Positions 10,684 to 38,886 are shown, numbered from the stretch's first letter. The stretch is DNA of 64,000 nucleotides from Patescibacteria group bacterium (GCA_041650515.1 JBAZLA010000001.1:221866-285865), one strand, 5' to 3'. Numbers and translations: made by a program. Notes: generated by a model from the sequence alone, not told the origin.

Positions 10684-12572
10684 GGTAGCGTAATGGTTTG
10701 GATTATCTCTTTTTGATCAATCATATTTTTAACCCCGCGCCAGTCGCTGATTTCTAGACCGCCGCTGATTTTGACTAGGTTGATAGTTATTTGATCGGCG
10801 GTTTTTTGTATTTGCTCTGGTAGAACCAGTGAGTAGTCAAAACTAATTAGCTCATCAGGTTTTAATTCGTTGGCTTGATATAGGCCATAAGCAAAAGGCA
10901 AAAAACGAGAGTAAATTGTTTGGTCGTTAGAATCTTTGATTACTAACTCTAATTCGTAGTTGTCATCAATCATCTGGCTAGTTTGAAATTGACAAGAAAT
11001 CGGTAGTCGATAGTCAATAGCTGATGGCTGATAACAAGTAAAGATGTCAGCTGGCGGTTGGCTCTCAGTGATTGTGTAAAGCTGCTGTTGGTCGCTAGGA
11101 TAGTTTTTTTGCCAAAGGCTGATTAGGTCTTCAGTTTTGACCAAACCGAAGTCACCTTGATTGATGGTTTGTCTTAGACGGGCCGCGCCATCAGAATAGA
11201 ATGGTTGGTAAAAAGCGACAAAATTAAATTGGAGGTCATAGGTGATGAAGTCAGCGGAGTCGATTAATAAATATTCAGTATCAGCTGGCAGTTGATAGTC
11301 CAAGTTAGAATATTGGTGTTTGCCAATAAAAGCGTAGTGTAGGCTATAAAGCGTTGGTCGCGAAGAAAGAGGGGGCAAAAATTCGTAGGTAGCGGCGATA
11401 GCAGCCTGGGGCGGGATTTGATTTAGGAACTCTTGTTTAATCGGTTTAAGATTAATAGCGTCAGCTTGTTCGATTCTAATACCTAATCCCCAAGCATTAT
11501 AAATATTAGTAACTAGCCAAAGGATGATAATTAGTTGGCGATGCTTGTGATATTTGGTCAGAATTAGCTTTAGACTATAGACCGTGGCAATAAATAAGGG
11601 AATAACAAATAGGGCACCATAGTGAGTCTGGAAAACCAGAGCCCCGCCGCCTGGTCCGCCAATGGTCATCTGAGCTAGATTCCCTAGCAGTAATATCAGG
11701 TAGTGGGGGTTGAGTAGTGGCAGGAAGAGAAAGGGTGTGAGAAAACCCAAGACCATTTCTAAGTTGGCATAGGTCGATAGGTGGCTTAGAAGTAATAGTG
11801 GGTGAGAAAAAATATTTTTTATTATTTCTGGTATGGAGTTGCCTAGCCAGCCGTAATAAAATAAAAATTTATAATTACCAGCTGGGTTAAGGCTGGCGAT
11901 AATTTTTAATGAGGCCCAGAACCAGAATATGCTTAGAGCCACTAGGGTAGTAACCCAGGACCAGAGAATTCTTTGTTGGTGTTTATGACAATCAACGATA
12001 ATAAACAGCGCTAGACAAAAAATATACAGCGACACATCCTCGCGGGTCATTAAAGCCAGGATGATGAAAGTGACAAAAGGATAAAACTGGCGTTTTTGGT
12101 AAAAGTAATAAGCGAAGAAGAGTAAAAAAACAGCCAAAGGTACAAGGTGAAACTCATAGAGATTGATATTGTGGATGAAGGGATTGAATAAATAGGCAAA
12201 AGGCAAGAGCAAATAATACTCGGGTTTGGCAAAAACACTTTTGGCAATTAGGTAGAGTGGCCAGGCCGCTAGGGCTAAAAAAATGGTTTGGAGAATCAAA
12301 AGAGTAATGGGCGATTGATAGATTAGATAAAAAGGTAAGAGCAGCAGTACTATGGGATTAAAATGATCAGCTAGATATGATGGTTCGTGGATTGAAGCGG
12401 CTAAGAGCTGACCGTGGGCGCTATTATAAAAGACCTGGTTGATGATGGCCAGATCGAGAGCGTTATAGCCGAAGTTAGAGTACTTATAGATGCAGATTGA
12501 GCTAAAGATAATAATATAAAGGCCAATTATCAACCAGAGCAGTAGCCAATGGTGTTTTTTAAATATTGACAT
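10680..12572 (-). CDS. Large polytopic membrane protein with C-terminal extracytoplasmic domain
   Basis: 630 aa; about 12 TM helices then a ~250 aa hydrophilic tail; convergent with the three upstream membrane genes. Confidence 0.6.
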   Translation of the reverse strand: MSIFKKHHWLLLWLIIGLYIIIFSSICIYKYSNFGYNALDLAIINQVFYNSAHGQLLAASIHEPSYLADHFNPIVLLLLPFYLIYQSPITLLILQTIFLALAAWPLYLIAKSVFAKPEYYLLLPFAYLFNPFIHNINLYEFHLVPLAVFLLFFAYYFYQKRQFYPFVTFIILALMTREDVSLYIFCLALFIIVDCHKHQQRILWSWVTTLVALSIFWFWASLKIIASLNPAGNYKFLFYYGWLGNSIPEIIKNIFSHPLLLLSHLSTYANLEMVLGFLTPFLFLPLLNPHYLILLLGNLAQMTIGGPGGGALVFQTHYGALFVIPLFIATVYSLKLILTKYHKHRQLIIILWLVTNIYNAWGLGIRIEQADAINLKPIKQEFLNQIPPQAAIAATYEFLPPLSSRPTLYSLHYAFIGKHQYSNLDYQLPADTEYLLIDSADFITYDLQFNFVAFYQPFYSDGAARLRQTINQGDFGLVKTEDLISLWQKNYPSDQQQLYTITESQPPADIFTCYQPSAIDYRLPISCQFQTSQMIDDNYELELVIKDSNDQTIYSRFLPFAYGLYQANELKPDELISFDYSLVLPEQIQKTADQITINLVKISGGLEISDWRGVKNMIDQKEIIQTITLP

Positions 12573-12687
12573 AATTTTTAGTTTATCTTACACTTTCCTT
12601 TGCTATATTATAGAATATCAATTGAAAAATAGCTAAGACTTTGCTAGAATACCGGTACCTGTTTTTTAAAAGAATCGAAGGTAGTAA

Positions 12688-12759
12688 GCGGGTGTCGTAT
12701 AAAGGTTATTATGTATCCTTGCCAAGGATAAGACGGCGGTTCGATTCCGCTCACCCGCT
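12688..12759 (+). tRNA. tRNA-Gly (anticodon GCC), atypical D-arm, no encoded CCA
   Basis: Acceptor GCGGGTG/CACCCGC; anticodon stem TATCC/GGATA with loop TTGCCAA; T-arm GGCGG-TTCGATT-CCGCT. D-arm pairing is poor, so this could be a pseudo-tRNA. Confidence 0.5.
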
Positions 12760-12793
12760 TAGTGCCTTTGATTAATAATAATGTTACCTTTAA

Positions 12794-12877
12794 GCCCAGG
12801 TGGTGAAACTGGTATACACGAGGGACTTAAAATCCCTTGCCCTTACGGGCGTGAGGGTTCGATTCCCTCCCTGGGCA
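12794..12877 (+). tRNA. tRNA-Leu (anticodon TAA), long variable arm, no encoded CCA
   Basis: Acceptor GCCCAGG/CCTGGGC; anticodon stem AGGGA/TCCCT with loop CTTAAAA; variable stem-loop GCCCTTACGGGC; T-arm GAGGG-TTCGATT-CCCTC. Confidence 0.85.
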
Positions 12878-13075
12878 TTTGAAATTTAGGCAAGCTGGGA
12901 GTAACGCCGACTTAGTTAGTCAAGGGTTCCCACCCTACGGGTGGTCCTCCGAAGGGGGAGATTCCCTCCCTGGGCATTTGAAATTTAGGCAAGCTGGGAG
13001 TAACGCCGACTTAGTTAGTCAAGGGTTCCCACCCTACGGGTGGTCCCCCGAAGGTGGAGATTCCCTCCCTGGGCA
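12878..13075. repeat. Two tandem 99-bp direct repeats, each ending with the 17-nt 3' end of tRNA-Leu (GATTCCCTCCCTGGGCA)
   Basis: Unit 1 is 12878-12976 and unit 2 is 12977-13075; they differ at 2 positions. The 17-mer also ends the tRNA itself at 12861-12877. The 67-aa track ORF here is a repeat artefact. Confidence 0.9.
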
Positions 13076-13156
13076 CCATTAATGAACAGAAAATAAGCTT
13101 CTGTTTTTTTGTTTAGTTCTGTTGTATAATATCTTCAAAATAAAAAATTAAATAAT

Positions 13157-14047
13157 ATGCCAGCAGAGGATAACAAAGTAAGAAAACAAAAAAGCAACAA
13201 AGTAACTGGTTTAGCTAATGGACGGAGGAAGAGTAAAATTTCACCGGTTCTAGTTAAAACAAAAATTAAGACAAAGCCGTCGGTAAAAACTAGACTAGTT
13301 CAGCCAGCGCCTGTCGCGCTAGTCACTCTTAATAAATCTAGTTTATCTAATATCTCTACCCGATTGGACAAGAAAAAAATTACTATTTATCACTGGCCAG
13401 TGGTGGTGGCTTTTGTCGCTTTTGTTTTTGTGATTACTAGTTTGGTTATATCCATTAGTTTAAGTAACAGTCAACAGTTGACTGGTACAAAATTGATTAT
13501 TGAGGAAACCGCGTCTCTAGACACAGGAATATTGACCGTGGTCGCTGATTGTCAGAGTGATAGTGGTTGTGGACCTAAATATAAATTATGGTCACCAGAT
13601 TTTAAAAATTTTGTACCATTAGTTGGTGATATTAGTGATCAAGATAATGGTCTATTGATAAGAGTGGTTGGCCAGATTGTAGAGTTACCAGCGGTTGAGT
13701 ATGATCCAGCCAGCTATCGTGGGTCGACTCAGGCTTGGCAAGTGACGAGCTATCAAGTTTTAGATAAAATTTCCTATCGTGATTTTCTGGTTCAGAAATC
13801 ACGTGAGTATACTAATAAGAATTATCTGTGTTTTTTAATGCCCGGTCGTCAGGGTTCTTTTAGCCAAGGTATGCAGACGATTTTTGGTTGGGCGTTAGTT
13901 GATAATCAACCGATTCTTAAAGTTAGAATGACCGATATTTATAGCGTAGATGATCCGCAGCCTTATTATGAGCTTTGGTATGATGGTAATAGCGGCGAGT
14001 TGGTTAAGGAAATTTTTAGTCCAGTTGATGGTAATTTTTGTAACTAG
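13157..14047 (+). CDS. Hypothetical membrane-anchored protein (Lys-rich N-terminus, one TM, extracytoplasmic domain)
   Basis: 296 aa ORF; TM segment WPVVVAFVAFVFVITSLVISISL; no recognisable family. Confidence 0.6.
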   Translation: MPAEDNKVRKQKSNKVTGLANGRRKSKISPVLVKTKIKTKPSVKTRLVQPAPVALVTLNKSSLSNISTRLDKKKITIYHWPVVVAFVAFVFVITSLVISISLSNSQQLTGTKLIIEETASLDTGILTVVADCQSDSGCGPKYKLWSPDFKNFVPLVGDISDQDNGLLIRVVGQIVELPAVEYDPASYRGSTQAWQVTSYQVLDKISYRDFLVQKSREYTNKNYLCFLMPGRQGSFSQGMQTIFGWALVDNQPILKVRMTDIYSVDDPQPYYELWYDGNSGELVKEIFSPVDGNFCN

Positions 14048-14101
14048 CAGCAAGAGCATTGTTTCTCACAAACAGCCGTTAATTAATGGTTGTTTTTTGT
14101 T

Positions 14102-14130
14102 TTTAAAAAAAAGCGGACAAATGTCCGCCA
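14102..14130 (-). terminator. Rho-independent terminator for the minus-strand gene 14153-14539
   Basis: On the minus strand: GCGGACA-TT-TGTCCGC followed by TTTTTTTT. Confidence 0.6.
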
Positions 14131-14152
14131 GGGCGAGTCGGCTGAGGTTGCT

Positions 14153-14539
14153 TTACCAAGTGACCAGAGTGATCCCAATAATGGGCAGGCGATGATCGCT
14201 CGGGTTGTGGTCGATTAGCTCGGGCAGCCAAACTGTTGGTGTCAGTTGTTCTGGCCAAACCGAGCGAGATTGCACCGGCGGCAGCTCTAGCGGTCTGATA
14301 TAATGGACCACGTGGTTCCGTCGGATTGGCAGCCTACCAGTGATAGACTGCAGGGTCATCAAGTATAGTTGGTCGGCCAATTGGCTGGTTGGTCCGCCTG
14401 GTTGGATTTCCTCCCAGAAGAGAGTCTCCAATATATCACCCGTTCGGACCTCAACAGTTTGCGGCCCAGCCGAGCTTTCGCTGGCCCAGGTGACTAGCCC
14501 AATCAAAACCACGACGAGCACAATCAGTAGTCTCTTCAC
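14153..14539 (-). CDS. Hypothetical secreted protein (signal peptide), GC-rich
   Basis: 128 aa; N-terminal MKRLLIVLVVVLIGLVTWASESSA looks like a signal peptide; GC above flanks; RBS GGAGG upstream. Confidence 0.5.
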   Translation of the reverse strand: MKRLLIVLVVVLIGLVTWASESSAGPQTVEVRTGDILETLFWEEIQPGGPTSQLADQLYLMTLQSITGRLPIRRNHVVHYIRPLELPPVQSRSVWPEQLTPTVWLPELIDHNPSDHRLPIIGITLVTW

Positions 14540-14656
14540 GGCACCCTCCTGCAGTTGCGGTTATTTTTAATATAACATTTTCTAAGTTTAGTTAAAGTAA
14601 AATGTCAAGAAAATCCTTGTTTTTTTAATCCAGACAGACTAAACTAATAGGGAAGT

Positions 14657-15736
14657 ATGCCTAGAAAAAAACAAACAATAATCAAGCCGGCCGTCGCTGA
14701 TGACGGTCTGGAGCGAGTTACTAGTCCCGAGGAAAAGAATGAGGAGAGAGTTTTTGATTTAATTCTTCGGCCTCAGAATTTAGGTGAATATATTGGTCAG
14801 GAGAAGGTCAAAAAGAATCTAGAGATTTTTATGGCCGCGGCGCGGCAGCGCGGCGAGCCGATTGAGCATGTTTTACTCTACGGCCCGCCAGGACTGGGCA
14901 AAACTACCCTGGCGCATATTATTGCTAAAGAGATGGGCGTGAGTATCCGGGTGACTAGTGGCCCGGCGATTGAGCGTTCGGGCGACCTAGCGGCGATTTT
15001 AACCAATCTGGGCGAAGGTGACGTCTTATTTATTGATGAAATTCATCGTCTTAACAAGGTGATTGAAGAAATTCTGTATCCAGCGATGGAAGAGCATGCT
15101 CTAGATATTGTTATCGGCAAGGGACCATCGGCTCGCACACTACGGCTGCAGCTACCCCATTTTACAATTATTGGCGCGACGACTCGCATCGGCAGTATCT
15201 CCTCGCCACTGCGCGACCGGTTTGGGAATATCTATCATCTCAATTTTTATGAAGACCAAGAAATCCAACAGATTTTAGATCGCTCGGCCAAGATTTTAGG
15301 AGTTGGTTTAATCGACGAGGCTTGTCAGCAGATCGCCAGCCGGTCGCGTCAAACGCCACGGATTGCTAATCGATTGCTTAAACGAGTGCGCGACTATGCG
15401 GAAGTTAAAGCTGATGGTAAAATAGATAACGAGGTTGCTCAAGCTGCCCTGGCTATGTTGGAGGTAGATCATTTTGGTCTGGACGCGGTTGACCGTCGCT
15501 TATTAAAAACGATTATTGAAAAGTTTAATGGTGGACCAGTTGGGTTGGGCACGTTAGCGGCGGCTATTTCGGAGGAGATAGAAACTATTGAAGAAGTCTA
15601 TGAGCCATTTTTGATGCAGCTGGGATTATTAAATCGGACACCGCGTGGTCGGCTGGCGACTAAATTAGCCTATGAGCATCTTGGTAAAATTCCGCCTAAG
15701 AGTTTGGCCGACGACCAGTCACAATTAGGGATTTAA
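14657..15736 (+). CDS. ruvB: Holliday junction branch migration DNA helicase RuvB
   Basis: 359 aa; Walker [10 protein letters not shown]; RuvB N-terminal block [22 protein letters not shown]. Confidence 0.95.
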
Positions 15737-15775
15737 TTATCGTTATAGGCTACCTTTAGGAGATATAATAACCCG

Positions 15776-16048
15776 ATGGAGACCAATATGATTACACTTT
15801 CTATATTCCTCTATATTTATCTGTTCTTAGTTGTTATTTTTATTTTATTTGCGATGTTTGTTATCTACCATGTAATTAGATTTTCTTTTTGGGGGTTGCC
15901 GGCATTTTTGGCGACTTTTTTGTTTATTGCGGCGACAGTTATTATTTTATTTGTTACACTAGATTATTGTGCTAGGGTTGATTGGCAGCAGCCGATTCAG
16001 ATTTTACCTAGCGGCGGTTTGTTTAGTACCCAAGATTTAATCAAATAA
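15776..16048 (+). CDS. Small 2-TM membrane protein
   Basis: 90 aa; two hydrophobic helices; precedes the bPH_2-type gene. Confidence 0.45.
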   Translation: METNMITLSIFLYIYLFLVVIFILFAMFVIYHVIRFSFWGLPAFLATFLFIAATVIILFVTLDYCARVDWQQPIQILPSGGLFSTQDLIK

Positions 16049-16049
16049 T

Positions 16050-16613
16050 ATGTATCGTGAACGTCTTTATTTGCCCGACCATTTACCGAATGAAAAAGTC
16101 GAGTTCGTCCTGCGGCGACATCTTTTTGTTGCTTTTGGTGAAGGATTATTATTTATCGTTTTATTTGCTATTCCAGTTGGTTTCTATTATTTTTTTAAGA
16201 TTTTATTTCCCCATTTATTGGCTAGTGAGGTTGTCTATACTTTATTGTTGCTGTCCGTTAGTGTTTATTACCTTTATATTTTACTTTTTGCCTATACTAG
16301 TTTTATTGATTATTGGCTAGATATCTGGGTAGTGACCAATGAACGAATTATCAGTATCGAGCAGAGAGGATTATTCGCCCGTAAGTTTTCGGAGCAGCAA
16401 CTTTTCTTACTACAGGACGTTTCCTCTGAGGTTCATGGTATTTTGGCAACCCTTTTTCACTTTGGGATATTGTTGCCCAGTCAGCTGGCTCAAAACAGAA
16501 CGCCATATTTAAACAGGTGCCGCGGGCTGACCAGATTGCTGTACGAATCATGCAACTCGCTGAGGCCAGCCGAAAAAATCATCCTGGAGAGGGGTAGCTT
16601 TAATTATCTTTAA
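16050..16613 (+). CDS. bPH_2 (YdbS/YdbT-like bacterial PH domain) membrane protein; probable frameshift near 16465-16470
   Basis: 2 TM then PH-like …NERIISIEQRGLFARKFSEQQLFLLQDVSSEVHGILATLF. Skipping one G in CACTTTGGG gives DIVAQSAGSKQNAIFKQVPRADQIAVRIMQLAEASRKNHPGEG* (stop 16595-16597), a much better family-like C-terminus than the track ORF tail. Confidence 0.55.
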   Translation: MYRERLYLPDHLPNEKVEFVLRRHLFVAFGEGLLFIVLFAIPVGFYYFFKILFPHLLASEVVYTLLLLSVSVYYLYILLFAYTSFIDYWLDIWVVTNERIISIEQRGLFARKFSEQQLFLLQDVSSEVHGILATLFHFGILLPSQLAQNRTPYLNRCRGLTRLLYESCNSLRPAEKIILERGSFNYL

Positions 16614-16663
16614 ATAACATCAGATTTTAAAATAGAGCAGACAGCTCTTTTTTTAGAAATAAA

Positions 16664-16704
16664 AAAACCCGCACATCCGGTAGGACCGAACGGCGGGGGT
16701 TTTA
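16664..16704. terminator. Weak bidirectional hairpin (CCCGC…GCGGG) with A-run before and T-run after, between convergent genes
   Basis: AAAAAAACCCGCACATCCGGTAGGACCGAACGGCGGGGGTTTTAG lies between the + gene ending 16613 and the - gene ending 16735. Confidence 0.35.
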
Positions 16705-16734
16705 GTTTCCAGAGAGCGAAGAGGTCGAGCCGGA

Positions 16735-17769
16735 TTAAGTCCTGGCGCTGTCTCGTTTTTCGTTGCGCCAGAGCCGGTCGAGATCTTCCAAATAGCGGGG
16801 CTCCACCTGCTCGGCCTCGTAGTCGAGCTGGGCCGGGAACAGCAGGTTGCCGAGCGCCATCTGATCGGTGAGCGATTTGCCCTGGGTCCAGCCGAGGAAG
16901 ACGCGGGGGTCACGAACTGCGAACGTGGTCGAGGGCTGCTCGACCAGATCATGGCTCATGCCCACTTTCTTGTCTCGGAAGAACAAGCAGAAGTCGCCAC
17001 CCGCCGTGCGAACATTGGCTGTGAACTCGGGAGCTTCGGCCAGGCGCGCTTGGTTTCTCGGGCTCTGGTTGGCCAGATCGATGAATCTCGTCATGGCTTC
17101 GAGAACACTCGGCATCGCCTCGGCGTACTCCGGCACCGGTTCGAAGGTGGGAACGGTGATCGCCCTGCTCCAATCGAGTTCATCATCGAAGAGCGGACTC
17201 TGGGCGATCTGAGTGGCCGAGAGCTCGGCCTGGGGGACGACAAACACGTCGGTGATCAGGCCTTCGCGTGTTCGCTTGAAGACCACTTTGATCGGCGTGT
17301 CGCCGCCGTAGATGCCCTGGCGGATGATGCCGGTGGTGGTGCGAATCGCCAGGGCGATCGCGCTGGTCGCTTGGGTCTGGTCGTCCTGCAGGTAGAAGAA
17401 ACCGAAGCCGAACGGCGCCTTGCCATGCATCCGAGCCGGTGCGAAATAAGTGATGACCGGTTCGGCGTAGGCGGCCATGCCGACGTCAGGTAGGTCGATC
17501 AACTCCAGTGCGGCATAGATGCATTTCGGGTTGGTGCACTTGGCCACGAAGGCAGGGGCATAGACCTGGCCGCATTTTGGGCATTGGGCGCCCACCAGCC
17601 GGGCTTCCCGTAGGAGCGGGATGAGCCAGCGGCTTTGTTCTCCGGCAGTCACCATCTGGGGAAAGCCGAAGAGGCGGGGTTGGAGTAGAACTTCGATCCC
17701 GTCGCCGAGTTGTTTGAGCTCGGGGACGAGGGCCATAATCGCTTCAAGCAATTGTCTGTCGATGTACAT
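16735..17769 (-). CDS. Zn-ribbon/OB-fold (DUF35-like) protein with C-terminal extension; thiolase partner
   Basis: Start set to MYIDRQLL (ATG at 17769, GGAGG RBS upstream). CxxC…CxxC zinc ribbon CPKCGQVYAPAFVAKCTNPKC. About 62% GC. Immediately downstream of the thiolase-like gene. Confidence 0.6.
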   Translation of the reverse strand: MYIDRQLLEAIMALVPELKQLGDGIEVLLQPRLFGFPQMVTAGEQSRWLIPLLREARLVGAQCPKCGQVYAPAFVAKCTNPKCIYAALELIDLPDVGMAAYAEPVITYFAPARMHGKAPFGFGFFYLQDDQTQATSAIALAIRTTTGIIRQGIYGGDTPIKVVFKRTREGLITDVFVVPQAELSATQIAQSPLFDDELDWSRAITVPTFEPVPEYAEAMPSVLEAMTRFIDLANQSPRNQARLAEAPEFTANVRTAGGDFCLFFRDKKVGMSHDLVEQPSTTFAVRDPRVFLGWTQGKSLTDQMALGNLLFPAQLDYEAEQVEPRYLEDLDRLWRNEKRDSART

Positions 17770-17783
17770 GGTGGCTGGCCTCC

Positions 17784-19040
17784 TCACGCCGCTTCGAGGT
17801 GGAAGATTTGGACGCCGCCATAGACAGCGCCATCGCCGCCGGTTCCATGGACGAGGCCCCATTCGACTTCGTTTTCGACCATGTACCAATAGACCTCGTT
17901 GGCGCTCATGATGTTTGAAGCGCCGACTGCATGGCCGCAGCCATACAGGCCACTGGCGGGGTCGATAACCCATTTCGGGTTCGGACCGACGACCAGACCG
18001 TCGTAGACGATGTCCTGGACATGCCCGGGTTGGCACATCTTCAGGGCGAGGAAGCTGAGCAGGGTTTGGCCGCCAAAGGCGCCATGATGTCCGATCACAC
18101 CCACTTGATCCGGGCCGATGCCGGCCATATCGTAGGCGCGTTCGGCAGCGATGCGGTGGGAGCGAAATTCGCTGATGTCTTGGAACTGAGGGCCGCGGCC
18201 GGGAATGGTTGATTCACAGGCGTGGCCGACGCCGGCGACGCGAACAAGCGGTCGACCGGTTTGCGAAGCGATCTCTTTGGCCCGGGCGTGGTTGGCCATG
18301 CCGATGACGGCTCCGCCTTCCGAATAAACGCAAACTTCGCCGAGCCGAGTATCGCCGATGATCGGACGGGAGTCCATGATCCAGTCGGCGGTGACCTGTT
18401 CCCCGTAGCGTTGGGCTTTCGGGTTGTTCCGGCTGTGGGAGCAGATCTCCTCGACCATCAGGGCGCGCGCTCGCAACTCGAGATCGCGGGGGTACCGGTA
18501 CTTGTAGCCGTTGATTCTGAATTGGTAGCTGCCGGCGGCGCTGAAGCCCAGCTTGTCGTGCAGCCAGTAGAGCCAGGAAGCCGCGATGGTATCGATGACC
18601 ATCGGGGTGGTGGAGTGGGAGAGCGGGTCGTAGGCGTCTTGGCATTTCTCTACGCCGAGAGCCAGACCGATCTGATGGCGGCCGCTCCGAATAGCATCGT
18701 ACAGCCGGGTCATCGCGGCAAGGCCGGTTTGGCCGCCGGTGGCGACACGGTCGCATTCGATGTTGTTCGTGCCGAGCACCATGTTGGCGAACGACTCGGC
18801 GATGAAGTGGTTCTGGAAGCTGGGATTGTACATCGCATAGGAGATGAAGTCGACCAGACTCATGTTGAACCACGGCCCCATGCGTTCACAGAAGGCCGCG
18901 ATGAGATCCTGGGTGATGCCCAGGAAAGTCTTGTCGAAGTATCTCCCTTTCATTGGCGTGATTTCAGCGCCAAAGACGAAGACGTTTTCCATGGTTACAG
19001 TCCTTTCGTTACGGGTCTCCGTTCGGGGTTTTAGATACAT
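17784..19040 (-). CDS. Thiolase-like protein (SCP-x/Ltp-type thiolase superfamily)
   Basis: 418 aa; thiolase-fold blocks (…GQTGLAAMTRLYDAIRSGRHQIGLALGVEKC…, C-terminal GCGHAVGASN…); GC-rich; same operon as the DUF35-like gene. Confidence 0.75.
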   Translation of the reverse strand: MYLKPRTETRNERTVTMENVFVFGAEITPMKGRYFDKTFLGITQDLIAAFCERMGPWFNMSLVDFISYAMYNPSFQNHFIAESFANMVLGTNNIECDRVATGGQTGLAAMTRLYDAIRSGRHQIGLALGVEKCQDAYDPLSHSTTPMVIDTIAASWLYWLHDKLGFSAAGSYQFRINGYKYRYPRDLELRARALMVEEICSHSRNNPKAQRYGEQVTADWIMDSRPIIGDTRLGEVCVYSEGGAVIGMANHARAKEIASQTGRPLVRVAGVGHACESTIPGRGPQFQDISEFRSHRIAAERAYDMAGIGPDQVGVIGHHGAFGGQTLLSFLALKMCQPGHVQDIVYDGLVVGPNPKWVIDPASGLYGCGHAVGASNIMSANEVYWYMVENEVEWGLVHGTGGDGAVYGGVQIFHLEAA

Positions 19041-19269
19041 TCATTCGTCACGTCTAGCTCGGCGGTGCGCGATTCTTCAATATCTTTCTCCTTTCTCTCT
19101 GAAATGTTGTTGTAAAGAGCAAAACAAAACAACCCTCCAGTCCTCCTTTGGGGTTGTTTATTCCCAATAAGCTAAAACTAACTCTCTCTCTCGTTTGTCA
19201 AGCTAAGTCACTCGGCTGGAGTTTTAGCTAAAAAACCGGTAGAATATACAAGAAAGCAAGTTTCTCCCC

Positions 19270-19366
19270 GTCATTGCGAGCCCCTCGGTTCACTCGGGAT
19301 AAACTCCGCGAAGCAATCTCCCTAATTATTCAGGGGATTGCTCCGTCGCTCCGCTCCTCGCAATGG
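19270..19366 (+). promoter_or_regulatory. About 95-nt imperfect long hairpin in the flippase 5' leader whose 3' arm contains the ATG
   Basis: CATTGCGAG (19272-19280) pairs with CTCGCAATG (19357-19365, ATG at 19363). Inner helices are GCGAAGCAATC/GATTGC… and CCC/GGG. Confidence 0.35.
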
Positions 19367-20811
19367 AAAGAAAACAATATTTTATGTCATTAACTAGTAA
19401 AGTCGCTCAGAATACTATTATCCAAATAATTGGTAAGGTGGTTTCCACGGCCTTGGGTTTGGCGACAGTTGGTTTGATGACCCGCTACCTGGGTCGTGAG
19501 GGCTTTGGTTGGTACACGACGGTGACGGCTTTTTTACAATTTTTTGGCATTTTAGTGGATATGGGTTTATCCATGGTGATTATTCAGCTGATCTCCGAGA
19601 CGCCAGAAGAGACTGAGAAAATTACCAAAAATATTTTTACTTTTAGATTAATTTCGGCAATCATTTTTCTAGGTCTGGCGCCATTTGTGGTTTTGTTTTT
19701 TCCCTACCCCGCGATTATCAAATGGGGCGTGGCACTGACGGCATTGTCTTTTTTGTTTATTTCGCTTAATCAGATTATCATTAGCTTATTCCAAAAATAT
19801 CTGCGGATGGATAAGGTGGCCATCGCCGAGATTATCGGCCGGTTAGTTTTGTTGGCCGGGGTGATCTTGGTAGTTTATTTTGGTTGGGGGTTTTTGCCAG
19901 TAATGGGCATGATCGTTTTAGGTAGTTTAGTTAATTTGGTGGCTAACCTGTTTTTTGTCCGTCGTTATGTGACAATCGGTTTAGCTTTTGATTTTGCAGT
20001 TTGGAAAAAGGTTTGGCTGCGCACCTGGCCGATTGCCCTATCAATCGCTTTTAATTTGGTTTATTTTAAAGCTGATACAATTATCCTTTCGCTTTATTGG
20101 CCACAGACTGAGGTGGGTATTTACGGGGCGACCTATAAAGTTTTGGAAGTATTGACCCAGCTAACTTATCTATTTATGGGCTTAATTCTGCCGATTTATT
20201 CAGCCTATTGGGCTAGTCAGAATTTTGATAAATTTAAACAGGCGATCCAAAAAGCTTTTGATTTTACCTCAATAATCACCTGGCCGATGGTGGTCGGTGG
20301 TTTTTTCTTGGCCGGGCCGATTATGATTTTTGTCGCCGGGGCCGACTTTAGTGCCGCGGCGCCGATTCTCCAAATTTTAATTTTTGCCACTGGAACAATA
20401 TTTATAACTAATGTTTTTACTTACGCCGTAGTGGCTGCTAACTTGCAAAAAAAGATGCTTTGGGGTTTTATTCTGGCCGCGATCTTCGGCCTGGCCGGCT
20501 ATCTTCTCCTTATTCCCACTTATTCCTACTTTGGCGCTGCCGGGATGACCGTGGCGGTTGAGTGCTTTATTACTCTGTTTGCTTTTTTGGTGGTTTATCG
20601 GACACTTAAGTTTGTACCTTCTTTTATAATTTTTGGTAAGGCTTTATTAGCTAGTTTGGTGATGGGAGTAGCCGTGGCCTTCTTGGTCGTTTATCAGATC
20701 AACTTATTAGTAGTCATTGTCTTAGGCGCTTTAATTTATACTTTAATATTATTTCTCTTGGGCGGCTACCAAAAGGAAACCGTACGAGAGATTTTAAATT
20801 GGCGAGGGTAG
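19363..20811 (+). CDS. Oligosaccharide flippase (Wzx-like, MOP/PST family)
   Basis: 482 aa with about 14 TM helices; typical polysaccharide-biosynthesis-protein N-terminus (VAQNTIIQIIGKVVSTALGL); adjacent to an O-antigen ligase-like gene. Confidence 0.75.
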   Translation: MERKQYFMSLTSKVAQNTIIQIIGKVVSTALGLATVGLMTRYLGREGFGWYTTVTAFLQFFGILVDMGLSMVIIQLISETPEETEKITKNIFTFRLISAIIFLGLAPFVVLFFPYPAIIKWGVALTALSFLFISLNQIIISLFQKYLRMDKVAIAEIIGRLVLLAGVILVVYFGWGFLPVMGMIVLGSLVNLVANLFFVRRYVTIGLAFDFAVWKKVWLRTWPIALSIAFNLVYFKADTIILSLYWPQTEVGIYGATYKVLEVLTQLTYLFMGLILPIYSAYWASQNFDKFKQAIQKAFDFTSIITWPMVVGGFFLAGPIMIFVAGADFSAAAPILQILIFATGTIFITNVFTYAVVAANLQKKMLWGFILAAIFGLAGYLLLIPTYSYFGAAGMTVAVECFITLFAFLVVYRTLKFVPSFIIFGKALLASLVMGVAVAFLVVYQINLLVVIVLGALIYTLILFLLGGYQKETVREILNWRG

Positions 20812-20812
20812 T

Positions 20813-22129
20813 ATGTTGGAGGTAACTTTACTAATCATTTTTCTTTTGCTCTTTGGCTGGTTGAGCTGGCATAATCTACAGCGGGGACTATTTTTGGTTA
20901 TTGTTTTATTGCCGGTTTATTTGGTTCGTTTCCACTTAGGTCCGGTGCCGGTAACTTTATTGGAGTCAATGATCTGGATTTTATTTATCAACTGGTTTTT
21001 AAAATCACTGTTGCATATTCACCTTTGGCCCAGAAGCAAATTTATTGGCGCCGCTTTGGTCATTTTGTTTATTTCGTTTCTGGCGATATTTGTTTCATCT
21101 GACCTGCGGGCCGCCGCCGGGCTTTGGAAAGCCTACTTTTTGGCGCCGTTTTTATTTTTGGTAGTTTTTTCTGGTTTGGTTAAGAAGTCAGAACATATCC
21201 GGGAAGTGATTTTGGCTTTGGGTATCTCGGCTTTACTGGTTTCGATAATGGCAATAATCCAAAAATTAGCCGGTGGTTATTTAGTGCCGACTGCTTATTG
21301 GCTTTTAGGTGAAGGTGAAAGAGTAACTAGTTTTTATCCTTATCCTAACGCAGTGGGATTGTTTTTAGCGCCGATAGTTATATTGTATGTAGGTTTAGTG
21401 GTCAGTCGCTGGTGGCTGGTGGCTAATAAAAAAGGCTGGTCTTTGTTTTTTTCTATGTCGGTTATTATTACCGGTGTGCTGGCAATTATTTTAGCTAAAT
21501 CAGATGGGGCGCTGGTTGGTCTAGTTGCTGGTTTGGCGGTTTTGGGGCTGTTTTTTAAGAAAAGTCGTTGGTGGGTGGCTGGTTTGGCGATTTTGGGTGG
21601 GGTAGCTTTTCTAGCTAATTTAGTACCACAGTCGATCGTAGATACACTTTTATTTCGCGATTGGTCGGGCAAGATACGATTGTTAATGTGGCGAGAAACT
21701 TGGCAACTAATCCGGGATCACTGGTTCTTGGGCGTTGGTTTAGCGGGTTATCAAACAGCATTAGCATCTTATCACCAGGCTAAGGAGATTGAGATTTTTA
21801 TGTATCCGCATAATTTTATCTTTAACTTTTGGGTGGAGCTGGGTTTAGCTGGTTTATTGACTTTCCTTTATATTATTGGTAAGTTCTTTCGGCTGGGAGT
21901 GGCAGTCTTAAAGTCGAAAGCCTGCCCCGAGCCCTTCGGCTTCGCTCAGGGCTGGCTCCGCCGGGAGGTCAAAAATTTTAGAGTTGTTGGTGCAGCATTA
22001 TTAGCGGCGTTGGTGGTAATTTTAGTTCACGGCTTGGTGGACGTTCCGTATTTTAAGAATGATTTAGCGATATTGTGGTGGACTATTTTTGGTCTAATGA
22101 GCAGCCTTTATAATTTAAAAAATGTCTAG
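20813..22129 (+). CDS. O-antigen ligase/polymerase family (Wzy_C) membrane protein
   Basis: 438 aa multi-TM; Wzy_C-like motif YPHNFIFNFWVELGLAGL. Contains a GC-rich in-frame segment at 21915-21972. Confidence 0.65.
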   Translation: MLEVTLLIIFLLLFGWLSWHNLQRGLFLVIVLLPVYLVRFHLGPVPVTLLESMIWILFINWFLKSLLHIHLWPRSKFIGAALVILFISFLAIFVSSDLRAAAGLWKAYFLAPFLFLVVFSGLVKKSEHIREVILALGISALLVSIMAIIQKLAGGYLVPTAYWLLGEGERVTSFYPYPNAVGLFLAPIVILYVGLVVSRWWLVANKKGWSLFFSMSVIITGVLAIILAKSDGALVGLVAGLAVLGLFFKKSRWWVAGLAILGGVAFLANLVPQSIVDTLLFRDWSGKIRLLMWRETWQLIRDHWFLGVGLAGYQTALASYHQAKEIEIFMYPHNFIFNFWVELGLAGLLTFLYIIGKFFRLGVAVLKSKACPEPFGFAQGWLRREVKNFRVVGAALLAALVVILVHGLVDVPYFKNDLAILWWTIFGLMSSLYNLKNV

Positions 22130-22562
22130 CAATTTAAGTTTTTATGAAAAAGTTTGTACTACTTTCTGGCGAGCAGTTGGTGAGACGAATTTTGCTAAGT
22201 GGGGGTATAGTTGGTTTAGAGATTTTCTGCTTCGTTTAAAATTAATTAGACATTGTGGCCGTCAGAATTTTTTTCTTGGTAAGTTGAGAAGCGATAAAAC
22301 CAGTGATGATTTAGTTACTTATCTAAGAACTCTTGGTTTTGAAAAAGATTATTATGCCTGGATTGATGAAGGTGAAGAATTGAGTCTTAGAAAAATAGAT
22401 GAGATACGCTATCAATATCATTTGCGGCTGCATGTTGACCGTGAGGTCAGGGGGCATTATGAGTATGCTCCAGACCGAAGGCCGTTGGGACATTTTTTTA
22501 GCATTAACCAGGAGTCGAGAGAAAATGAATTTAGGAAAATGTTAGTTGATTTTTTAGAATAA
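22122..22562 (+). CDS. Hypothetical protein
   Basis: 146 aa ORF overlapping the upstream stop by 8 nt; no family recognised. Confidence 0.45.
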   Translation: MSSNLSFYEKVCTTFWRAVGETNFAKWGYSWFRDFLLRLKLIRHCGRQNFFLGKLRSDKTSDDLVTYLRTLGFEKDYYAWIDEGEELSLRKIDEIRYQYHLRLHVDREVRGHYEYAPDRRPLGHFFSINQESRENEFRKMLVDFLE

Positions 22563-22660
22563 AATTATGGAGAGGTGGCTGCTGAGCGGTTTCCGCCTAC
22601 GTCCCAATTTATTGGGACTTCGGCGGACAAGGAAAGTGCAGCCCTGCCCCGTAGCAGAGC

Positions 22661-22747
22661 GGAGACGTGTCAGAGTGGTCGAATGAGCCGCACTCGAAAT
22701 GCGGTGTACCCATAAGGGTACCGGAGGTTCGAATCCTCCCGTCTCCG
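22661..22747 (+). tRNA. tRNA-Ser (anticodon CGA), long variable arm, no encoded CCA
   Basis: Acceptor GGAGACG/CGTCTCC; anticodon stem CCGCA/TGCGG with loop CTCGAAA; variable arm GTACCCATAAGGGTACC; T-arm GGAGG-TTCGAAT-CCTCC. Flanked by the 14-nt inverted repeat CCCCGTAGCAGAGC / GCTCTGCTACGGGG. Confidence 0.85.
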
Positions 22748-22881
22748 CTCTGCTACGGGGGTCGAGAAAAAGTTGTTTTAGTGAAAGTCCTCGCGAGTTT
22801 GAATCTCGCCCCTTACGCTTAGTGCTGGACTTCACCGTTAGTTAGAAAGATTTAAATAATATTAACAAACTATTTGTTTTT

Positions 22882-23490
22882 ATGAAAAATCAGAAAGGAG
22901 TTGCTGTTGTTGCCGTGGTTGTTTTAGTTATTGCTGGATTAGCGGCGACATCGATAATGTATATTGCCGTCAAAGAGCCGGCCCTATTTAATTTAATTGA
23001 AGAAAAATTAGAAAGTATAGTTACTCCCAAAGCGCCGATTGGTGATCTAACGCCTACTCGTGATTTAGAAGGTACCTGGGTTTCCAGCCTTTCGGGCAAA
23101 GGGATGCAACTTTATGGCCAATTTGCCGTGGCCGGCGGAACAACCAAAATTTATGAAGATGGTGATATTGAGCTAAAGATTGATCGAGTAGAAAATAATA
23201 TTGCTTCCGGCCAAATCCGTTATCATAACGTGTGTGGTTATGGCCAGTCGATTGTTCCTAATATTGCTACGGTGACCGTGCCCAGGACTTGTTTTCCAGA
23301 TTTTGGTTTTCAGCCGGTTGAAATAAGAGTCAGCGCCACTGCTTTGGATTTCGGTACTATTAATACTGGTGAGCTAACTGCGACAATGCAAGGTAGCTAT
23401 ACTACTGATTTAATGTCTGGATCAATGACTTTGAGTGTTCCAGCTTACGGGGTGGTTAAGGGGGAATTCCATTTAATGCGAAAAAGATAA
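22882..23490 (+). CDS. Hypothetical membrane-anchored protein
   Basis: 202 aa; N-terminal TM VAVVAVVVLVIAGLAATSIMYIAV; no family recognised. Confidence 0.55.
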   Translation: MKNQKGVAVVAVVVLVIAGLAATSIMYIAVKEPALFNLIEEKLESIVTPKAPIGDLTPTRDLEGTWVSSLSGKGMQLYGQFAVAGGTTKIYEDGDIELKIDRVENNIASGQIRYHNVCGYGQSIVPNIATVTVPRTCFPDFGFQPVEIRVSATALDFGTINTGELTATMQGSYTTDLMSGSMTLSVPAYGVVKGEFHLMRKR

Positions 23491-23513
23491 TTTATTTTGA
23501 TGCTTTTGTTTAT

Positions 23514-23538
23514 AAAATCACCCGCGAGGGTGATTTTT
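23514..23538 (+). terminator. Rho-independent terminator (ATCACCC-GCGA-GGGTGAT followed by TTTTT)
   Basis: Perfect 7-bp stem and T-run 24 nt after the stop. Confidence 0.6.
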
Positions 23539-23608
23539 AGTTTAGATTTTTTTAATATTTGTTGTATTATACTAGGGGAGTGTATAGCTTAATTAAATAA
23601 ACAACCCT

Positions 23609-24322
23609 ATGTCCACTTTAATTTTTGACATCGAAACAATCGGCGAGAGCTGGAATGCGCTAGATGAAACGACGCAAGAAGTCCTAACTCGCTGGATTAA
23701 GAAGACTTCTGAAGACGAAGGCGCCTATCAAGCTAAACTAGCCGACCTCAAAAATGAGCTGGGTTTTTCGCCTTTTACCGGTGAGATCGTGGCGATCGGC
23801 GTGCTGGATTTAGAAAAAGACAAAGGCGCGGTTTATTATCAAGCCCCGGGTCAAAAAGACCAAGAAACTGAGAATAAAGGGATTAAGTTTAAACCGTTGA
23901 GCGAAAAAGAAATGTTGGAGCAGTTTTGGCAGGGCGTGAGTAAGTATCAGGATTTTGTCAGTTTTAATGGTCGTAGTTTTGATGTGCCTTATTTAATGAT
24001 TCGCTCGGCTATCAATCAAGTGCGACCCAGCAAAGATTTATTATCCAACCGTTATCTGAGTAGCCAAAAGTTTGAAGCTAAGCATATTGATCTCTTGGAT
24101 CAGCTAACTTTTTACGGCGCTTCTTGGACTCGTAAGCCGAGTTTGCATGTAGCTTGTCGCGCTTTTGGTATCCAAAGCCCTAAAGCTGGTGGTGTTACTG
24201 GTGATGACGTAGCTGGTTTATTCCGGGATAAAAAATATTTAGATATTGCCCGTTATAATGTTGGTGATTTACGGGCCACTAAAGCGTTGTATCAATACTG
24301 GCGAGATTATTTGAAGTTTTAG
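23609..24322 (+). CDS. RNase H-like 3'-5' exonuclease (PolB-exonuclease-related/COG3298-like)
   Basis: 237 aa; MSTLIFDIETIG (DxE exo motif I), …FNGRSFDVPYL…, …YNVGDLRATKALY (exo III-like). Confidence 0.65.
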   Translation: MSTLIFDIETIGESWNALDETTQEVLTRWIKKTSEDEGAYQAKLADLKNELGFSPFTGEIVAIGVLDLEKDKGAVYYQAPGQKDQETENKGIKFKPLSEKEMLEQFWQGVSKYQDFVSFNGRSFDVPYLMIRSAINQVRPSKDLLSNRYLSSQKFEAKHIDLLDQLTFYGASWTRKPSLHVACRAFGIQSPKAGGVTGDDVAGLFRDKKYLDIARYNVGDLRATKALYQYWRDYLKF

Positions 24323-24403
24323 GGGATTAGGATATAAAAGTGCTAAAAGTCGCCCCAGCTGGCGATTTTTGATATACTATAGATAGTTATTATTAATAAT
24401 CAT

Positions 24404-24874: not shown

Positions 24875-24933
24875 TTAATATTTCCGCTATCGGCGGACCA
24901 GCCTTTGGCTGAAATAATTAAGAACCAAATTTT

Positions 24934-25506: not shown

Positions 25507-25531
25507 AATTAATTCATTTTAAATAATTAAT

Positions 25532-25810
25532 ATGAAAAAAAATATTTTTCTTTTGTCCACCTTGCTCATTTTAGTGATTTTGGTCCTAGCTGGCTGTGCA
25601 CCAACCGAGCGGCCGAATATTGCCCAGGAGGGTGGGTTGACTGGTCAGCTAAATAACGATATTGAACCGGTTGATGATATCAGCGGCGAAAATGATGATG
25701 GGGCAATCGATATTAATCAAGAAGTGGATGATCTAGATAAAGAAATTAACTCCATTAATAGTAATGACTTTGATCCTAATGATCTACCGTTGGAGAGTGA
25801 TAAATTTTAA
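25532..25810 (+). CDS. Small acidic lipoprotein (lipobox LAGC)
   Basis: 92 aa; signal peptide ending LVLAGC; Asp/Glu-rich mature part. Confidence 0.5.
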   Translation: MKKNIFLLSTLLILVILVLAGCAPTERPNIAQEGGLTGQLNNDIEPVDDISGENDDGAIDINQEVDDLDKEINSINSNDFDPNDLPLESDKF

Positions 25811-27414: not shown

Positions 27415-27428
27415 CTTAAACAAAAAGT

Positions 27429-38883: not shown

Positions 38884-38886
38884 AGT

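Follow-up and report, generated by a model that had tools for sequence, protein, structure and literature searches.

The 64,000-nucleotide stretch analysed here (GCA_041650515.1, JBAZLA010000001.1:221866-285865; hereafter the window), which belongs to a Patescibacteria group bacterium and thus to the Candidate Phyla Radiation (CPR), carries on its minus strand a compact two-gene operon lodged in a short segment of GC-rich DNA. The first gene, A, codes for a protein of the thiolase superfamily, and the second, B, for a protein in which a DUF35-like module, made of a zinc ribbon and an OB fold, is followed by a C-terminal domain of predicted SCP2 fold. GC content is 60.7% between positions 16,735 and 19,040 and 40.7% in the remainder of the window, in agreement with a preliminary description of this DNA, which had reported an island of about 2.4 kb at roughly 60% GC set abruptly against ~40% flanks. 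In a scan by 1-kb intervals the sole outliers are 17,001-18,000 and 18,001-19,000 (61% each), all other values ranging from 35 to 50%. At a resolution of 100 nt, GC climbs from 0.37 to more than 0.6 between 16,650 and 16,800 at the low-coordinate border, and drops between ~18,750 and ~19,060 at the other. The GC-rich segment extends from about 16,660 to 19,040-19,060.

Tetranucleotide usage, whose profiling along with that of GC had been proposed as a check, singles out the same segment alone: the L1 distance of the island from the host profile is 0.731, against 0.205 +/- 0.024 (maximum 0.294) for the other 2.3-kb segments (n=114), which corresponds to z = 22 and is far beyond chance. The GC excess is concentrated at synonymous positions. 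GC at the first, second and third codon positions (GC1/2/3) is 0.61/0.44/0.77 in gene A and 0.64/0.43/0.77 in gene B, whereas GC3 is 0.41-0.45 in four flanking host genes (those coding for RuvB, the adjacent membrane protein, a flippase and Wzy). Since this codon-position pattern fits coding sequence, the minus-strand frames of A and B are the real ones. Composition and codon usage deviate over one discrete segment, as they do in horizontally acquired islets.

The two co-directional minus-strand genes separated by a GGAGG ribosome-binding site, as first described, are read directly in the sequence (Table 1), the GGAGG starting immediately past the stop codon of gene A. The hairpin of the operon terminator begins 37 nt past the stop codon of gene B. 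The RNA fold of 16,652-16,712 on the minus strand reaches -26.6 kcal/mol (z = -4.9), with 0 of 200 shuffles as good; a pattern scan had missed this terminator because of its nested stem. The reading frame of gene A contains a further upstream ATG at 19,040, and both its homologues and the NCBI gene model begin at MENV; neither this start nor a long GTG-started upstream extension of gene B finds support among homologues. The operon promoter presumably lies in the intergenic region that separates gene A from the divergent flippase gene, and a scan of the minus strand of that region for consensus sigma-70-type promoters returned no site.

Table 1. Features of the A-B operon and of the adjoining host DNA; positions are counted from the first nucleotide of the window.
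Feature	Position	Strand	Basis or remark
Terminator of the operon (GC-rich hairpin 16,668-16,697, U7 16,661-16,667)	16,661-16,697	-	RNA fold
Gene B, 344 aa (ATG 17,769, TAA 16,737-16,735)	16,735-17,769	-	homologues, alignment, predicted structure
Ribosome-binding site of gene B, GGAGG, 9 nt before the ATG	17,779-17,783	-	sequence reading
Gene A, 402 aa (ATG 18,992, TGA 17,786-17,784)	17,784-18,992	-	Pfam, alignments, predicted structure
Weak ribosome-binding site of gene A, AAGGA, 8 nt before the ATG	19,001-19,005	-	sequence reading
Intergenic region between gene A and the divergent host flippase gene	19,041-19,362	.	GC ~39-53%, near that of the host
Flanking host gene, bPH_2-like membrane protein (PF03703 in relatives)	16,050-16,613	+	not disrupted by the insertion
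Flanking host gene, Wzx/MurJ-type polysaccharide flippase	19,363-20,811	+	Pfam families of the identical Logan contig; synteny
Wzy_C (O-antigen ligase-like) gene, next to the flippase	20,813-22,129		Pfam families of the identical Logan contig

Eight further open reading frames (ORFs) of at least 80 aa overlap A and B in other frames or strands, to which the upstream extension of the B frame must be added, and their dismissal as an artefact of high-GC DNA in the preliminary description stands. Public annotation shows concretely how a gene caller can be drawn to antisense ORFs by a GC-rich islet within an otherwise AT-rich genome: on the identical ENA contig k141_897830 (ERZ27247363, our L077; locus 10,903-12,986), A and B are replaced by three plus-strand ORFs of 180, 93 and 270 aa, without Pfam matches.

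Concerning the origin of the island, the product of gene A is identical to NCBI MFA5076019.1, a 'thiolase family protein [Patescibacteria group bacterium]' encoded on a 287-kb contig. Syntenic relatives were found via the flippase gene, and they are distant only (RuvB 72-79% identical). In one of them (L065; RuvB 79% identical) the RuvB, flippase and Wzy genes are contiguous, and in two others (L066/L067; RuvB 72% identical) RuvB-TM90-TM182 (the latter two coding for small membrane proteins) is followed by 2.5 kb of unrelated genes and then by the flippase; none of the three carries the A-B pair. At the distance of these relatives, the pair is therefore both absent from the site and, as detailed below, incongruent in its phylogeny with the host. 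The ENA contig mentioned above was also considered as a possible 'empty site' in a near-identical strain and was rejected as such, being the window itself at 99.99% with mis-called plus-strand ORFs.

A search of 5.8 billion proteins yielded closest homologues that are only 51-55% identical for gene A (16 full-length clusters) and 44-49% identical for gene B (28 homologues). The nearest are instances of the same A-B pair on five contigs, two of which are labelled Acidobacteriota or 'uncultured bacterium'. The preliminary description had named closest homologues in other CPR genomes of similar GC as the finding that would speak against a transfer; none of the closest homologues comes from a CPR genome, and the five contigs have a GC content of 57-68% in four cases and of 45% in one (L063). 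Neighbour-joining trees of A and B are congruent, and in both the window pair is the long-branched sister of the five-contig clade. Given this position next to a mainly GC-rich clade, the donor would be an unsampled, GC-rich lineage related to this Acidobacteriota-type clade. As to a plasmid or phage origin, neither tblastn of B against 72,556 plasmids nor a blastn search of 50,697 phage records with the island gave any match.

The member of the nearest clade that lies on the 45% GC contig (L063/L064; JGI 3300045411, Logan SRR35367209) has a gene A with a GC3 of 0.46, and its pair comes after an MFS transporter gene, near an S2-EF-Ts-PyrH-RRF cluster. The nearest clade is therefore not limited to GC-rich genomes.

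Could A and B instead have been inherited vertically, as native CPR genes, and owe their high GC to something else, for example local selection or biased gene conversion? Homologous pairs do occur in four other CPR metagenome-assembled genomes (MAGs), as would then be expected; however, these belong to a different clade, with B proteins only 30-35% identical to that of the window, the pair is absent at the site in syntenic relatives, and the deviation in GC3 and tetranucleotides spans exactly one operon. We regard native origin as scarcely credible. Composition, synteny and trees agree instead on foreign DNA from a high-GC donor in a genome that NCBI labels Patescibacteria, as had been proposed, and horizontal acquisition of the island is well supported and very probably real. 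Of the 'recent' transfer initially suggested, the transfer holds, and its recency is only relative, considering a best identity of 55% and syntenic relatives with RuvB proteins 72-79% identical.

An abrupt switch in composition with no mobility genes around it is also what would be seen if DNA of a GC-rich organism had been joined into a CPR contig by misassembly or misbinning, and a chimeric assembly had indeed been put forward as a less likely alternative. Against this, the Logan contig SRR8542065_17207 (22 kb) matches positions 13,017-27,736 of the window at 99.993% (one indel), both junctions included, and encodes the exact gene B product, while the ENA contig k141_897830 (90 kb, with a MEGAHIT-style name) matches 5,951-26,597 at 99.97-99.99%, again spanning both junctions, which are thus shared at 99.99% identity by three assemblies from different assemblers (NCBI MAG, Logan, ENA/MEGAHIT). 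Moreover, exactly one complete operon is interposed, beyond which the host DNA continues with the same gene order as in the relatives. Both junctions are intergenic: the low-coordinate one lies between convergent terminators, that of the operon and a terminator-like hairpin of the bPH_2-like gene (16,634-16,648, then T7), and the other lies in a divergent intergenic region. No repeat is present at either. A chimera appears unlikely from these comparisons, and indeed very improbable, because the three assemblies agree, host gene order resumes, and two coincident mis-joins would be required.

The island borders themselves bear no sign of a mobile element: they were searched for tRNA genes, for target-site duplications and for repeats on either side, direct or inverted, and nothing above chance-level matches of 12-25 nt was returned. 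Such mobility signatures do surround a homologous pair in a Niyogibacteria genome (see below).

Two small differences among the assemblies lie close to the island. The window lacks one base near 16,463, in the bPH_2-like ORF, with respect to both the Logan and ENA assemblies, which frameshifts the C-terminus and gives a protein of 187 aa in the window and of 182 aa in the other two. The 182-aa version carries a C-terminal motif kept in relatives (IFKQVP..ADQ..), so that the version in the window is probably an assembly or consensus error, or else a rare variant. Further upstream, a 99-nt tandem duplication at 12,854-13,051 (copies 96% identical) begins inside the 3' end of a tRNA-Leu(taa) (12,794-12,877), and the ENA contig has a single copy of the unit. 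Either an att-like scar left by an integrative element or a difference in assembly could account for it. The 3.7 kb that separate it from the island include core genes (RuvB), and we draw no connection between the two.

A scan with the B alignment, retaining one genome per species, identified 56 loci. Gene A lies immediately upstream of gene B in 53 of the 55 further loci mapped, and the remaining two contigs break off shortly before B. The labelled loci are mostly from Acidobacteriota/Terriglobia, Thermodesulfobacteriota/Deltaproteobacteria, Chloroflexota and Bacillota. The pairing of SCP-x/Ltp-type thiolases with DUF35 proteins had been described as typical of Actinobacteria and archaea, which does not apply to this family: among its labelled loci, three carry actinobacterial labels and none is archaeal.

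Nor is the pair unique to one CPR genome. It is present in four other CPR MAGs, labelled Nealsonbacteria (L015), Yanofskybacteria (L016), Saccharibacteria (L023) and Niyogibacteria (L024), with A preceding B in all four. Their A proteins are 77-82% identical to one another, and the A copies of Terriglobia and other Acidobacteria are 79-81% identical to that of Yanofskybacteria. In the trees these four pairs fall in a different clade from that of the window, beside Terriglobia sequences. Their GC content is slightly above that of their hosts (GC3 0.42-0.54). Because the four MAGs carry a different clade, CPR bacteria would have acquired the pair at least twice, and the window copy is the compositionally freshest of the CPR copies and, so far, the only one from its clade.

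In Niyogibacteria (L024; Candidatus Niyogibacteria MHMQ01000004.1, 4,870-11,208) the pair is bordered by a tRNA-His on one side and a Lys-Glu-Met tRNA cluster on the other, and genes for a tyrosine integrase and a large serine recombinase lie directly upstream of it. The same tRNA cluster, together with a downstream ComEC gene, is found at the Saccharibacteria-labelled locus (L023; 308-2,880). This site looks like an integration hot spot, and the Niyogibacteria arrangement offers a precedent for mobility of the pair in CPR.

Genes for acyl-CoA metabolism recur around the pair outside the window. A short/medium-chain-type acyl-CoA dehydrogenase is a neighbour in ~18 loci, a 650-aa ACS/acetoacetate-CoA-ligase-like enzyme or a two-subunit CoA-transferase in ~12, and a crotonase-type enoyl-CoA hydratase in a few. 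Beyond the acyl-CoA dehydrogenase, the ACS-like ligase and the CoA-transferase, unbiased clustering of the neighbours of some 50 loci revealed no general conserved partner, and only lineage-specific synteny (a sigma factor, Rnf and a molybdopterin oxidoreductase in Syntrophomonadaceae). Unlike these acyl-CoA catabolic clusters, the pair in the 64-kb window is an orphan.

Two of the CPR loci have acyl-CoA neighbours of their own. In Nealsonbacteria (L015; Candidatus Nealsonbacteria JACPGX010000001.1, 1-7,429), A and B open a single co-directional run that continues with DUF2889, acetoacetate-CoA ligase, MeaB, and the beta and alpha subunits of electron transfer flavoprotein (ETF). The acetoacetate-CoA ligase is bona fide (937 bits against a cutoff of 639), and the acyl-CoA cluster is larger than usual in CPR. 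In Yanofskybacteria (L016) a true thiolase lies divergently upstream of the pair and an ACS-like ligase downstream.

The assignment of gene A to the thiolase superfamily, made from the outset, holds for the fold. Pfam Thiolase_C_1 scores 34.7 bits (cutoff 28), and the AlphaFold model (pLDDT 83.8, pTM 0.88) shows the alpha-beta-alpha-beta-alpha thiolase fold, N- and C-terminal halves included. Foldseek places it at a TM of ~0.8 to 6et9_C, 6hrv_B and 7yvy_A, and its fold relatives are the archaeal thiolase of the thiolase/HMG-CoA synthase/DUF35 complex, SCP2-type thiolases and a Pyrococcus thiolase. Profile comparisons give the same picture, the A family matching the archaeal thiolase 6esq_A (E 5.5e-44) and SCP2-thiolase (E 5e-43) far better than PhlC (E 2e-26), BbsB (E 1e-25), SLP (E 1e-24), Sal (E 2e-20) and Ltp2 (E 9e-20). 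From its sequence, A can be described as a thiolase-fold protein of the DUF35-partnered/SCP2-thiolase branch.

What does not hold for gene A is thiolase catalysis. In place of the nucleophilic Cys of thiolases (motif AACASG or NRFCSSG), A has Gly, its TGGQTG aligning to the AACASG of 6esq_A. The same position is Gly in 19 of 19 family members, while the true thiolase of the Yanofskybacteria locus has Cys in the same alignment. The acid/base Cys is missing as well: HDCF of 6hsj_A aligns to HGAF, and the MCVGGG of the CxG loop to HGTGGD. The third position of the former motif is Ala throughout the family, although the motif itself varies: the window copy reads HGAF, its nearest clade HCAF and all other members HDAF. 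H303 and H354, by contrast with the Cys residues, are invariant in the family, and correspond to the His of HDCF and to that of the GH motif, respectively; their assignment to the oxyanion holes follows what is established for thiolases. Some 70 positions are invariant across 27 sequences of the A family. With both catalytic Cys absent, family-wide, A does not qualify as a catalytic thiolase.

These residues bear directly on the possibility that A is a working acetoacetyl-CoA or 3-ketoacyl-CoA thiolase, as annotated, with B as its DUF35 scaffold. The fold, at a TM of ~0.8 to archaeal and SCP2 thiolases, a DUF35-type partner like that of the archaeal thiolase/HMG-CoA synthase complex, and the database names ('thiolase family protein', 'acetyl-CoA acetyltransferase') all agree with such a function. 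However, every one of the aligned members has Gly for the nucleophilic Cys and Ala for the Cys of HDCF, and none has the CxG Cys; all NCBIfam thiolase models score far under their cutoffs (17 of 17 matches; the best, PRK06064, reaches 114 bits for a cutoff of 420). In addition, there is no HMG-CoA synthase nearby; none is adjacent to the pair, as had been noted from the start. A working thiolase is accordingly most unlikely, and the mevalonate-pathway reading of the thiolase/HMG-CoA synthase/DUF35 type was rejected for want of both the synthase and the catalytic Cys.

Gene B is organized, in its predicted structure, as an N-terminal helix, a zinc ribbon and OB fold of DUF35-like type (cf. PF12172 + PF01796; ~40-185), and a C-terminal domain of SCP2 fold (~210-344). 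The AlphaFold model has a pLDDT of 86.5 (90-97 over most of 210-300) and a pTM of 0.79. The zinc ribbon, C63-x2-C66 ... C78-x4-C83, is formed by four Cys that are all invariant in the family and align with 6esq_E and 3irb_A, matching residues 61-63 and 86-92 of the model. The ribbon reported in the preliminary description is thus present, with a spacing of CxxC...CxxxxC rather than CxxC...CxxC. The extension reported after the OB fold is also there; it is ~150-160 aa long instead of ~180 and, judging from its predicted fold, is an SCP2-type domain.

Neither module of B is easily recognized in the sequence. Pfam zf-ChsH2 scores 20.9 bits, below its cutoff of 23.2, PF01796 gives no match, and the sub-threshold zinc ribbon is all that is detected at this level; no precomputed Pfam domain is recorded in any of the 28 B homologues, which JGI names 'uncharacterized OB-fold protein'. 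Structure comparison is clearer. With Foldseek, the OB-fold half matches 6esq_E/G and 9myr_B at probability 1.00 and TMt 0.60-0.67, and 7pxp_E at 0.48, over 122-154 columns, as well as DUF35 chains of MucB/PhlB type, all solved thiolase-fold complexes being represented among the matches; the family profile concurs, matching canonical ~150-aa DUF35 proteins at E 1e-11 to 1e-6 over profile positions ~40-185. The C-terminal half, as modelled, matches 3bn8_A (AF1534; E 4.5e-4, TMt 0.68), and further matches to the SCP2 fold include 3cnu (AF1534), 3bdq (mosquito SCP-2L2), 2nbm, UbiJ-SCP2 6h6p and the C-terminal domain of the alkylsulfatase SdsA1. The likeness is at fold level: Pfam SCP2 (PF02036) gives no match to B even at E <= 1.

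Searched against 1.84 billion cluster representatives, the B profile gave 36 matches at E <= 1e-30, of which many are fragments; proteins fusing DUF35 to SCP2 thus make up a family that is distinct and has few members. No paper among those searched deals with this fusion or with thiolase-like transfers into Patescibacteria. A compensated frameshift was also considered for the divergent 7-residue insertion that B carries near its C-terminus, and was rejected after the other two frames, read by eye, revealed no family motif.

Among characterized systems, the closest to the A-B pair is the archaeal thiolase-HMG-CoA synthase-DUF35 complex (6esq), which provides the best sequence and fold match of A (phmmer 3.9e-21, besides the profile match above; Foldseek TM ~0.82) and whose chains 6esq_E/G come closest in fold to the N-terminal half of B. 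In both cases a thiolase-fold protein is combined with a separate zinc-ribbon/OB protein. However, the archaeal thiolase has the catalytic Cys residues that A lacks, the complex includes an HMG-CoA synthase, and its DUF35 protein is 130 aa long with no SCP2 domain, whereas B carries an additional domain of this type of ~135 aa. Second in both sequence and fold are the SCP2-type thiolases, including eukaryotic SCPx (zebrafish 6hsj/6hrv), in which a thiolase-fold unit is likewise combined with an SCP2 domain. Here the combination extends over two polypeptides, the SCP2 domain being on the DUF35 partner and not on the thiolase, and recognizable by fold and not through Pfam; the His of the HDCF motif is kept in A and both catalytic Cys are missing. 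The bacterial benzoylsuccinyl-CoA thiolase BbsAB (7pxp) and the acyltransferases PhlABC/MucABC are fold matches for both A and B, and their thiolase-fold and DUF35 subunits are also encoded side by side, but BbsB and PhlC keep the catalytic Cys, their partners have no SCP2 domain, and the context of the bbs operon or the phl cluster is absent around the present pair.

The steroid aldolases Ltp2-ChsH2 (6ok1) and Sal-Shy (9myr) share with A a Gly at the nucleophile position, as described for Sal (CtSal; PMC12329534), and a partner with a DUF35 module, 9myr_B being among the top fold matches of B. They show that a thiolase fold devoid of Cys can cleave C-C bonds by retro-aldol. In these aldolases the catalytic Tyr is the first residue of a YDHF/YDCY motif, equivalent to HDCF, with His or Cys in third position (PMC12329534); A has His first and Ala third. 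Their similarity to A is also far weaker than that of true thiolases (profile E ~1e-20 against 1e-44), ChsH2 and Shy are fusions of DUF35 to a MaoC hydratase where B is a fusion to SCP2 without a MaoC domain, and Ltp2 and Sal sit in steroid catabolic clusters, whereas no annotated neighbour in related A-B loci belongs to steroid catabolism. Membership of A in the steroid aldolase family was thus rejected on the motif, and these enzymes are retained as a mechanistic analogy.

Acyl-CoA metabolism is not unheard of in CPR: beta-oxidation gene sets have been reported in the CPR bacterium Parcunitrobacteria, and the authors considered these genes to be highly divergent and no recent acquisition (Castelle et al. 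2017, PMC5220378). Such genes are regarded as unusual for the group, and the Nealsonbacteria locus is of that kind. The pair in the window differs in being compositionally foreign, in standing alone, and in not being a canonical beta-oxidation enzyme.

We propose the following sequence of events and functions. A compact operon, consisting of two genes and equipped with ribosome-binding sites and a terminator of its own, was very probably inserted between the membrane-protein and flippase genes of a Patescibacteria genome. To our knowledge, every solved thiolase-fold/DUF35 system is a complex (archaeal thiolase-HMG-CoA synthase, BbsAB, PhlABC, Ltp2-ChsH2, Sal-Shy); by analogy, A and B may form a heteromer: with its DUF35 module, B would sit on an A dimer and give the acyl-CoA cleft its shape, and with its SCP2 module it would hold a hydrophobic part of the substrate. 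A would bind acyl-CoA through the preserved H303 and H354 and, as no acyl-enzyme can form without Cys, would catalyse a non-thiolytic step on the acyl-CoA after activation and dehydrogenation of the acid. Our preferred candidate for this step, although more likely wrong than right, is that A acts after an acyl-CoA dehydrogenase and cleaves a C-C bond, by a retro-aldol or lyase-type reaction, in an acyl-CoA that is 3-hydroxylated or otherwise blocked; the analogy is with Ltp2 and Sal, from which A would differ in its acid/base set. Decarboxylation, a scaffold role for another enzyme, and non-enzymatic lipid handling by the SCP2 domain are other roles that A and B may have.

The last of these roles can be developed into a different view of the family, in which the pair would be less an enzyme than, in the main, a lipid-binding or transfer device that helps a lipid-auxotrophic CPR cell handle lipids taken from its host. 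The SCP2 fold of B would suit such a function, as would the lack of thiolase or aldolase catalytic residues in A, the position of the island next to cell-envelope genes (flippase, Wzy) and the acquisition of the pair by several CPR lineages. However, conservation among 118 A homologues reaches 93% or more in ~100 columns, both active-site His among them, which is an enzyme-like pattern, and outside CPR the pair is tied to acyl-CoA dehydrogenase and CoA-activating genes. We consider a mainly lipid-handling device improbable, though less so than a working thiolase. The enzymatic reading can also be stated at its broadest: the pair would represent an uncharacterised two-component enzyme family with a new active-site solution for acyl-CoA C-C chemistry, moved repeatedly between Acidobacteriota-type soil or groundwater bacteria and at least five CPR lineages, and letting lipid-auxotrophic bacteria of reduced genome process or salvage acyl or lipid compounds. 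In this full form the proposal is doubtful, a little more so than the retro-aldol or lyase step taken by itself.

Taken as a whole, the account given here (horizontal acquisition, operon content, and the proposed complex and mechanism) is one to which we would assign a probability of roughly 85%, and a number of observations weigh against it. Some concern the transfer. The donor is unsampled (best identity 55% among the 5.8 billion proteins), so that direction and date of the transfer rest on composition; the three assemblies may share their reads; and the junctions in the window show neither an integrase nor a transposase, and neither flanking repeats nor a tRNA. Others concern function. The window contains no acyl-CoA dehydrogenase, CoA ligase or transferase, hydratase or ETF gene within its 64 kb. 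The aldolase-type signature is absent, the Tyr of the YDHF/YDCY motif (PMC12329534) being His in A. Finally, A itself has diverged: it differs at 18 of the 100 columns that are at least 93% conserved in the 118 homologues, among which the next worst differs at 6 and the median at 0, and 24 of its lineage-specific changes fall within residues 301-350, around the HxAF motif. With respect to B, divergence of A is about twice that of its nearest relatives, which is compatible with a loss of function.

This last group of observations makes it conceivable that the transfer is real and the pair a non-functional, decaying passenger, its frames open since GC-rich DNA has few stops. We think this rather unlikely, but it is the most serious of the alternatives. 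The changed conserved positions of A include D57P (in the IYNDIF motif), P65A, G318K, G339P and G347S. Private changes of A within its own clade number 63 (82 with a looser count), against 7 or fewer in any other member, and the A/B divergence ratio is 0.86-1.0 for the window pair compared with 0.42-0.57 among the nearest relatives. Moreover, the usual partners (acyl-CoA dehydrogenase, CoA ligase, hydratase, ETF) are lacking, and intact frames are weak evidence of selection because most frames of the island carry long ORFs. On the other side, B keeps 39 of 40 family-conserved residues, all four zinc ligands included, both genes align end to end with their homologues without frameshifts, and ribosome-binding sites and terminator are intact. 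In addition, the changed codons of A have a GC3 of 0.85, higher than that of the retained ones (0.75), and amino acids with AT-rich codons rise only modestly, from 24 to 34. Since the changed codons are GC-rich, most of the divergence of A would have arisen in a GC-rich genome before the transfer and not by decay in the AT-rich host, although this is suggestive only.

We therefore favour acquisition of a complete operon over both a chimera and a decaying passenger, with the qualification that, as an orphan with a fast-evolved A, the pair may in its present host be inactive, repurposed or reliant on genes elsewhere in the genome. The 'metabolic novelty' for a reduced genome that was initially suggested remains unproven, given the absence of the usual partner genes from the 64 kb and the departure of A at conserved positions.

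Three other features of the window are unrelated to the operon. A tandem array of ~10 small paralogous genes (119-236 aa) occupies 38,173-43,661 on the plus strand. All four genes tested match Pfam T4SS_pilin (PF18895, E 1e-7 to 1e-10), and the array forms an 8-copy family of 146-nt repeats at a spacing of ~460-480 nt, with an 18-nt tandem repeat at 38,386-38,457 in its first gene. A pair of 49-nt GC-rich inverted repeats, 78% complementary (GCCTGCCCCGAGCCCTTCGGCTTCGCTCAGGGC...), lies at 21,920-21,968 and 44,030-44,078; one arm falls within the Wzy_C ORF, in its 3' portion, and reads ...KACPEPFGFAQGWLRRE... in translation, and the pair may be a small dispersed repeat element. Lastly, a bacterial class A RNase P RNA (163 bits) is encoded at 54,735-55,202 on the minus strand; at 468 nt for a model of 367 positions, it carries ~100 nt of insertions.

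The genomes of CPR/Patescibacteria are very small, and it is believed that these bacteria obtain lipids, and most of their building blocks, from other cells. Clean, documented gene gains from unrelated phyla show how the metabolism of such bacteria can expand, and the present case consists of one complete operon with precise boundaries and unameliorated composition. It also has a practical side: two public annotations of gene A, as a thiolase and as an acetyl-CoA acetyltransferase, would wrongly add a step of beta-oxidation or of the mevalonate pathway to metabolic reconstructions of CPR MAGs, and one gene caller missed A and B entirely.

The A-B family, which appears to be small and uncharacterised, extends the series of thiolase-fold/DUF35 systems (thiolase-HMG-CoA synthase, BbsAB, PhlABC, Ltp2, Sal) by a member with no catalytic Cys, no aldolase Tyr and an SCP2-bearing partner. 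The novelty is modest but real: a variant of this kind that entered CPR more than once does not overturn current views. An active complex would represent new chemistry on a well-studied scaffold, whereas a pair that is inactive in its present host would show foreign DNA at an early stage of its stay in a streamlined genome.

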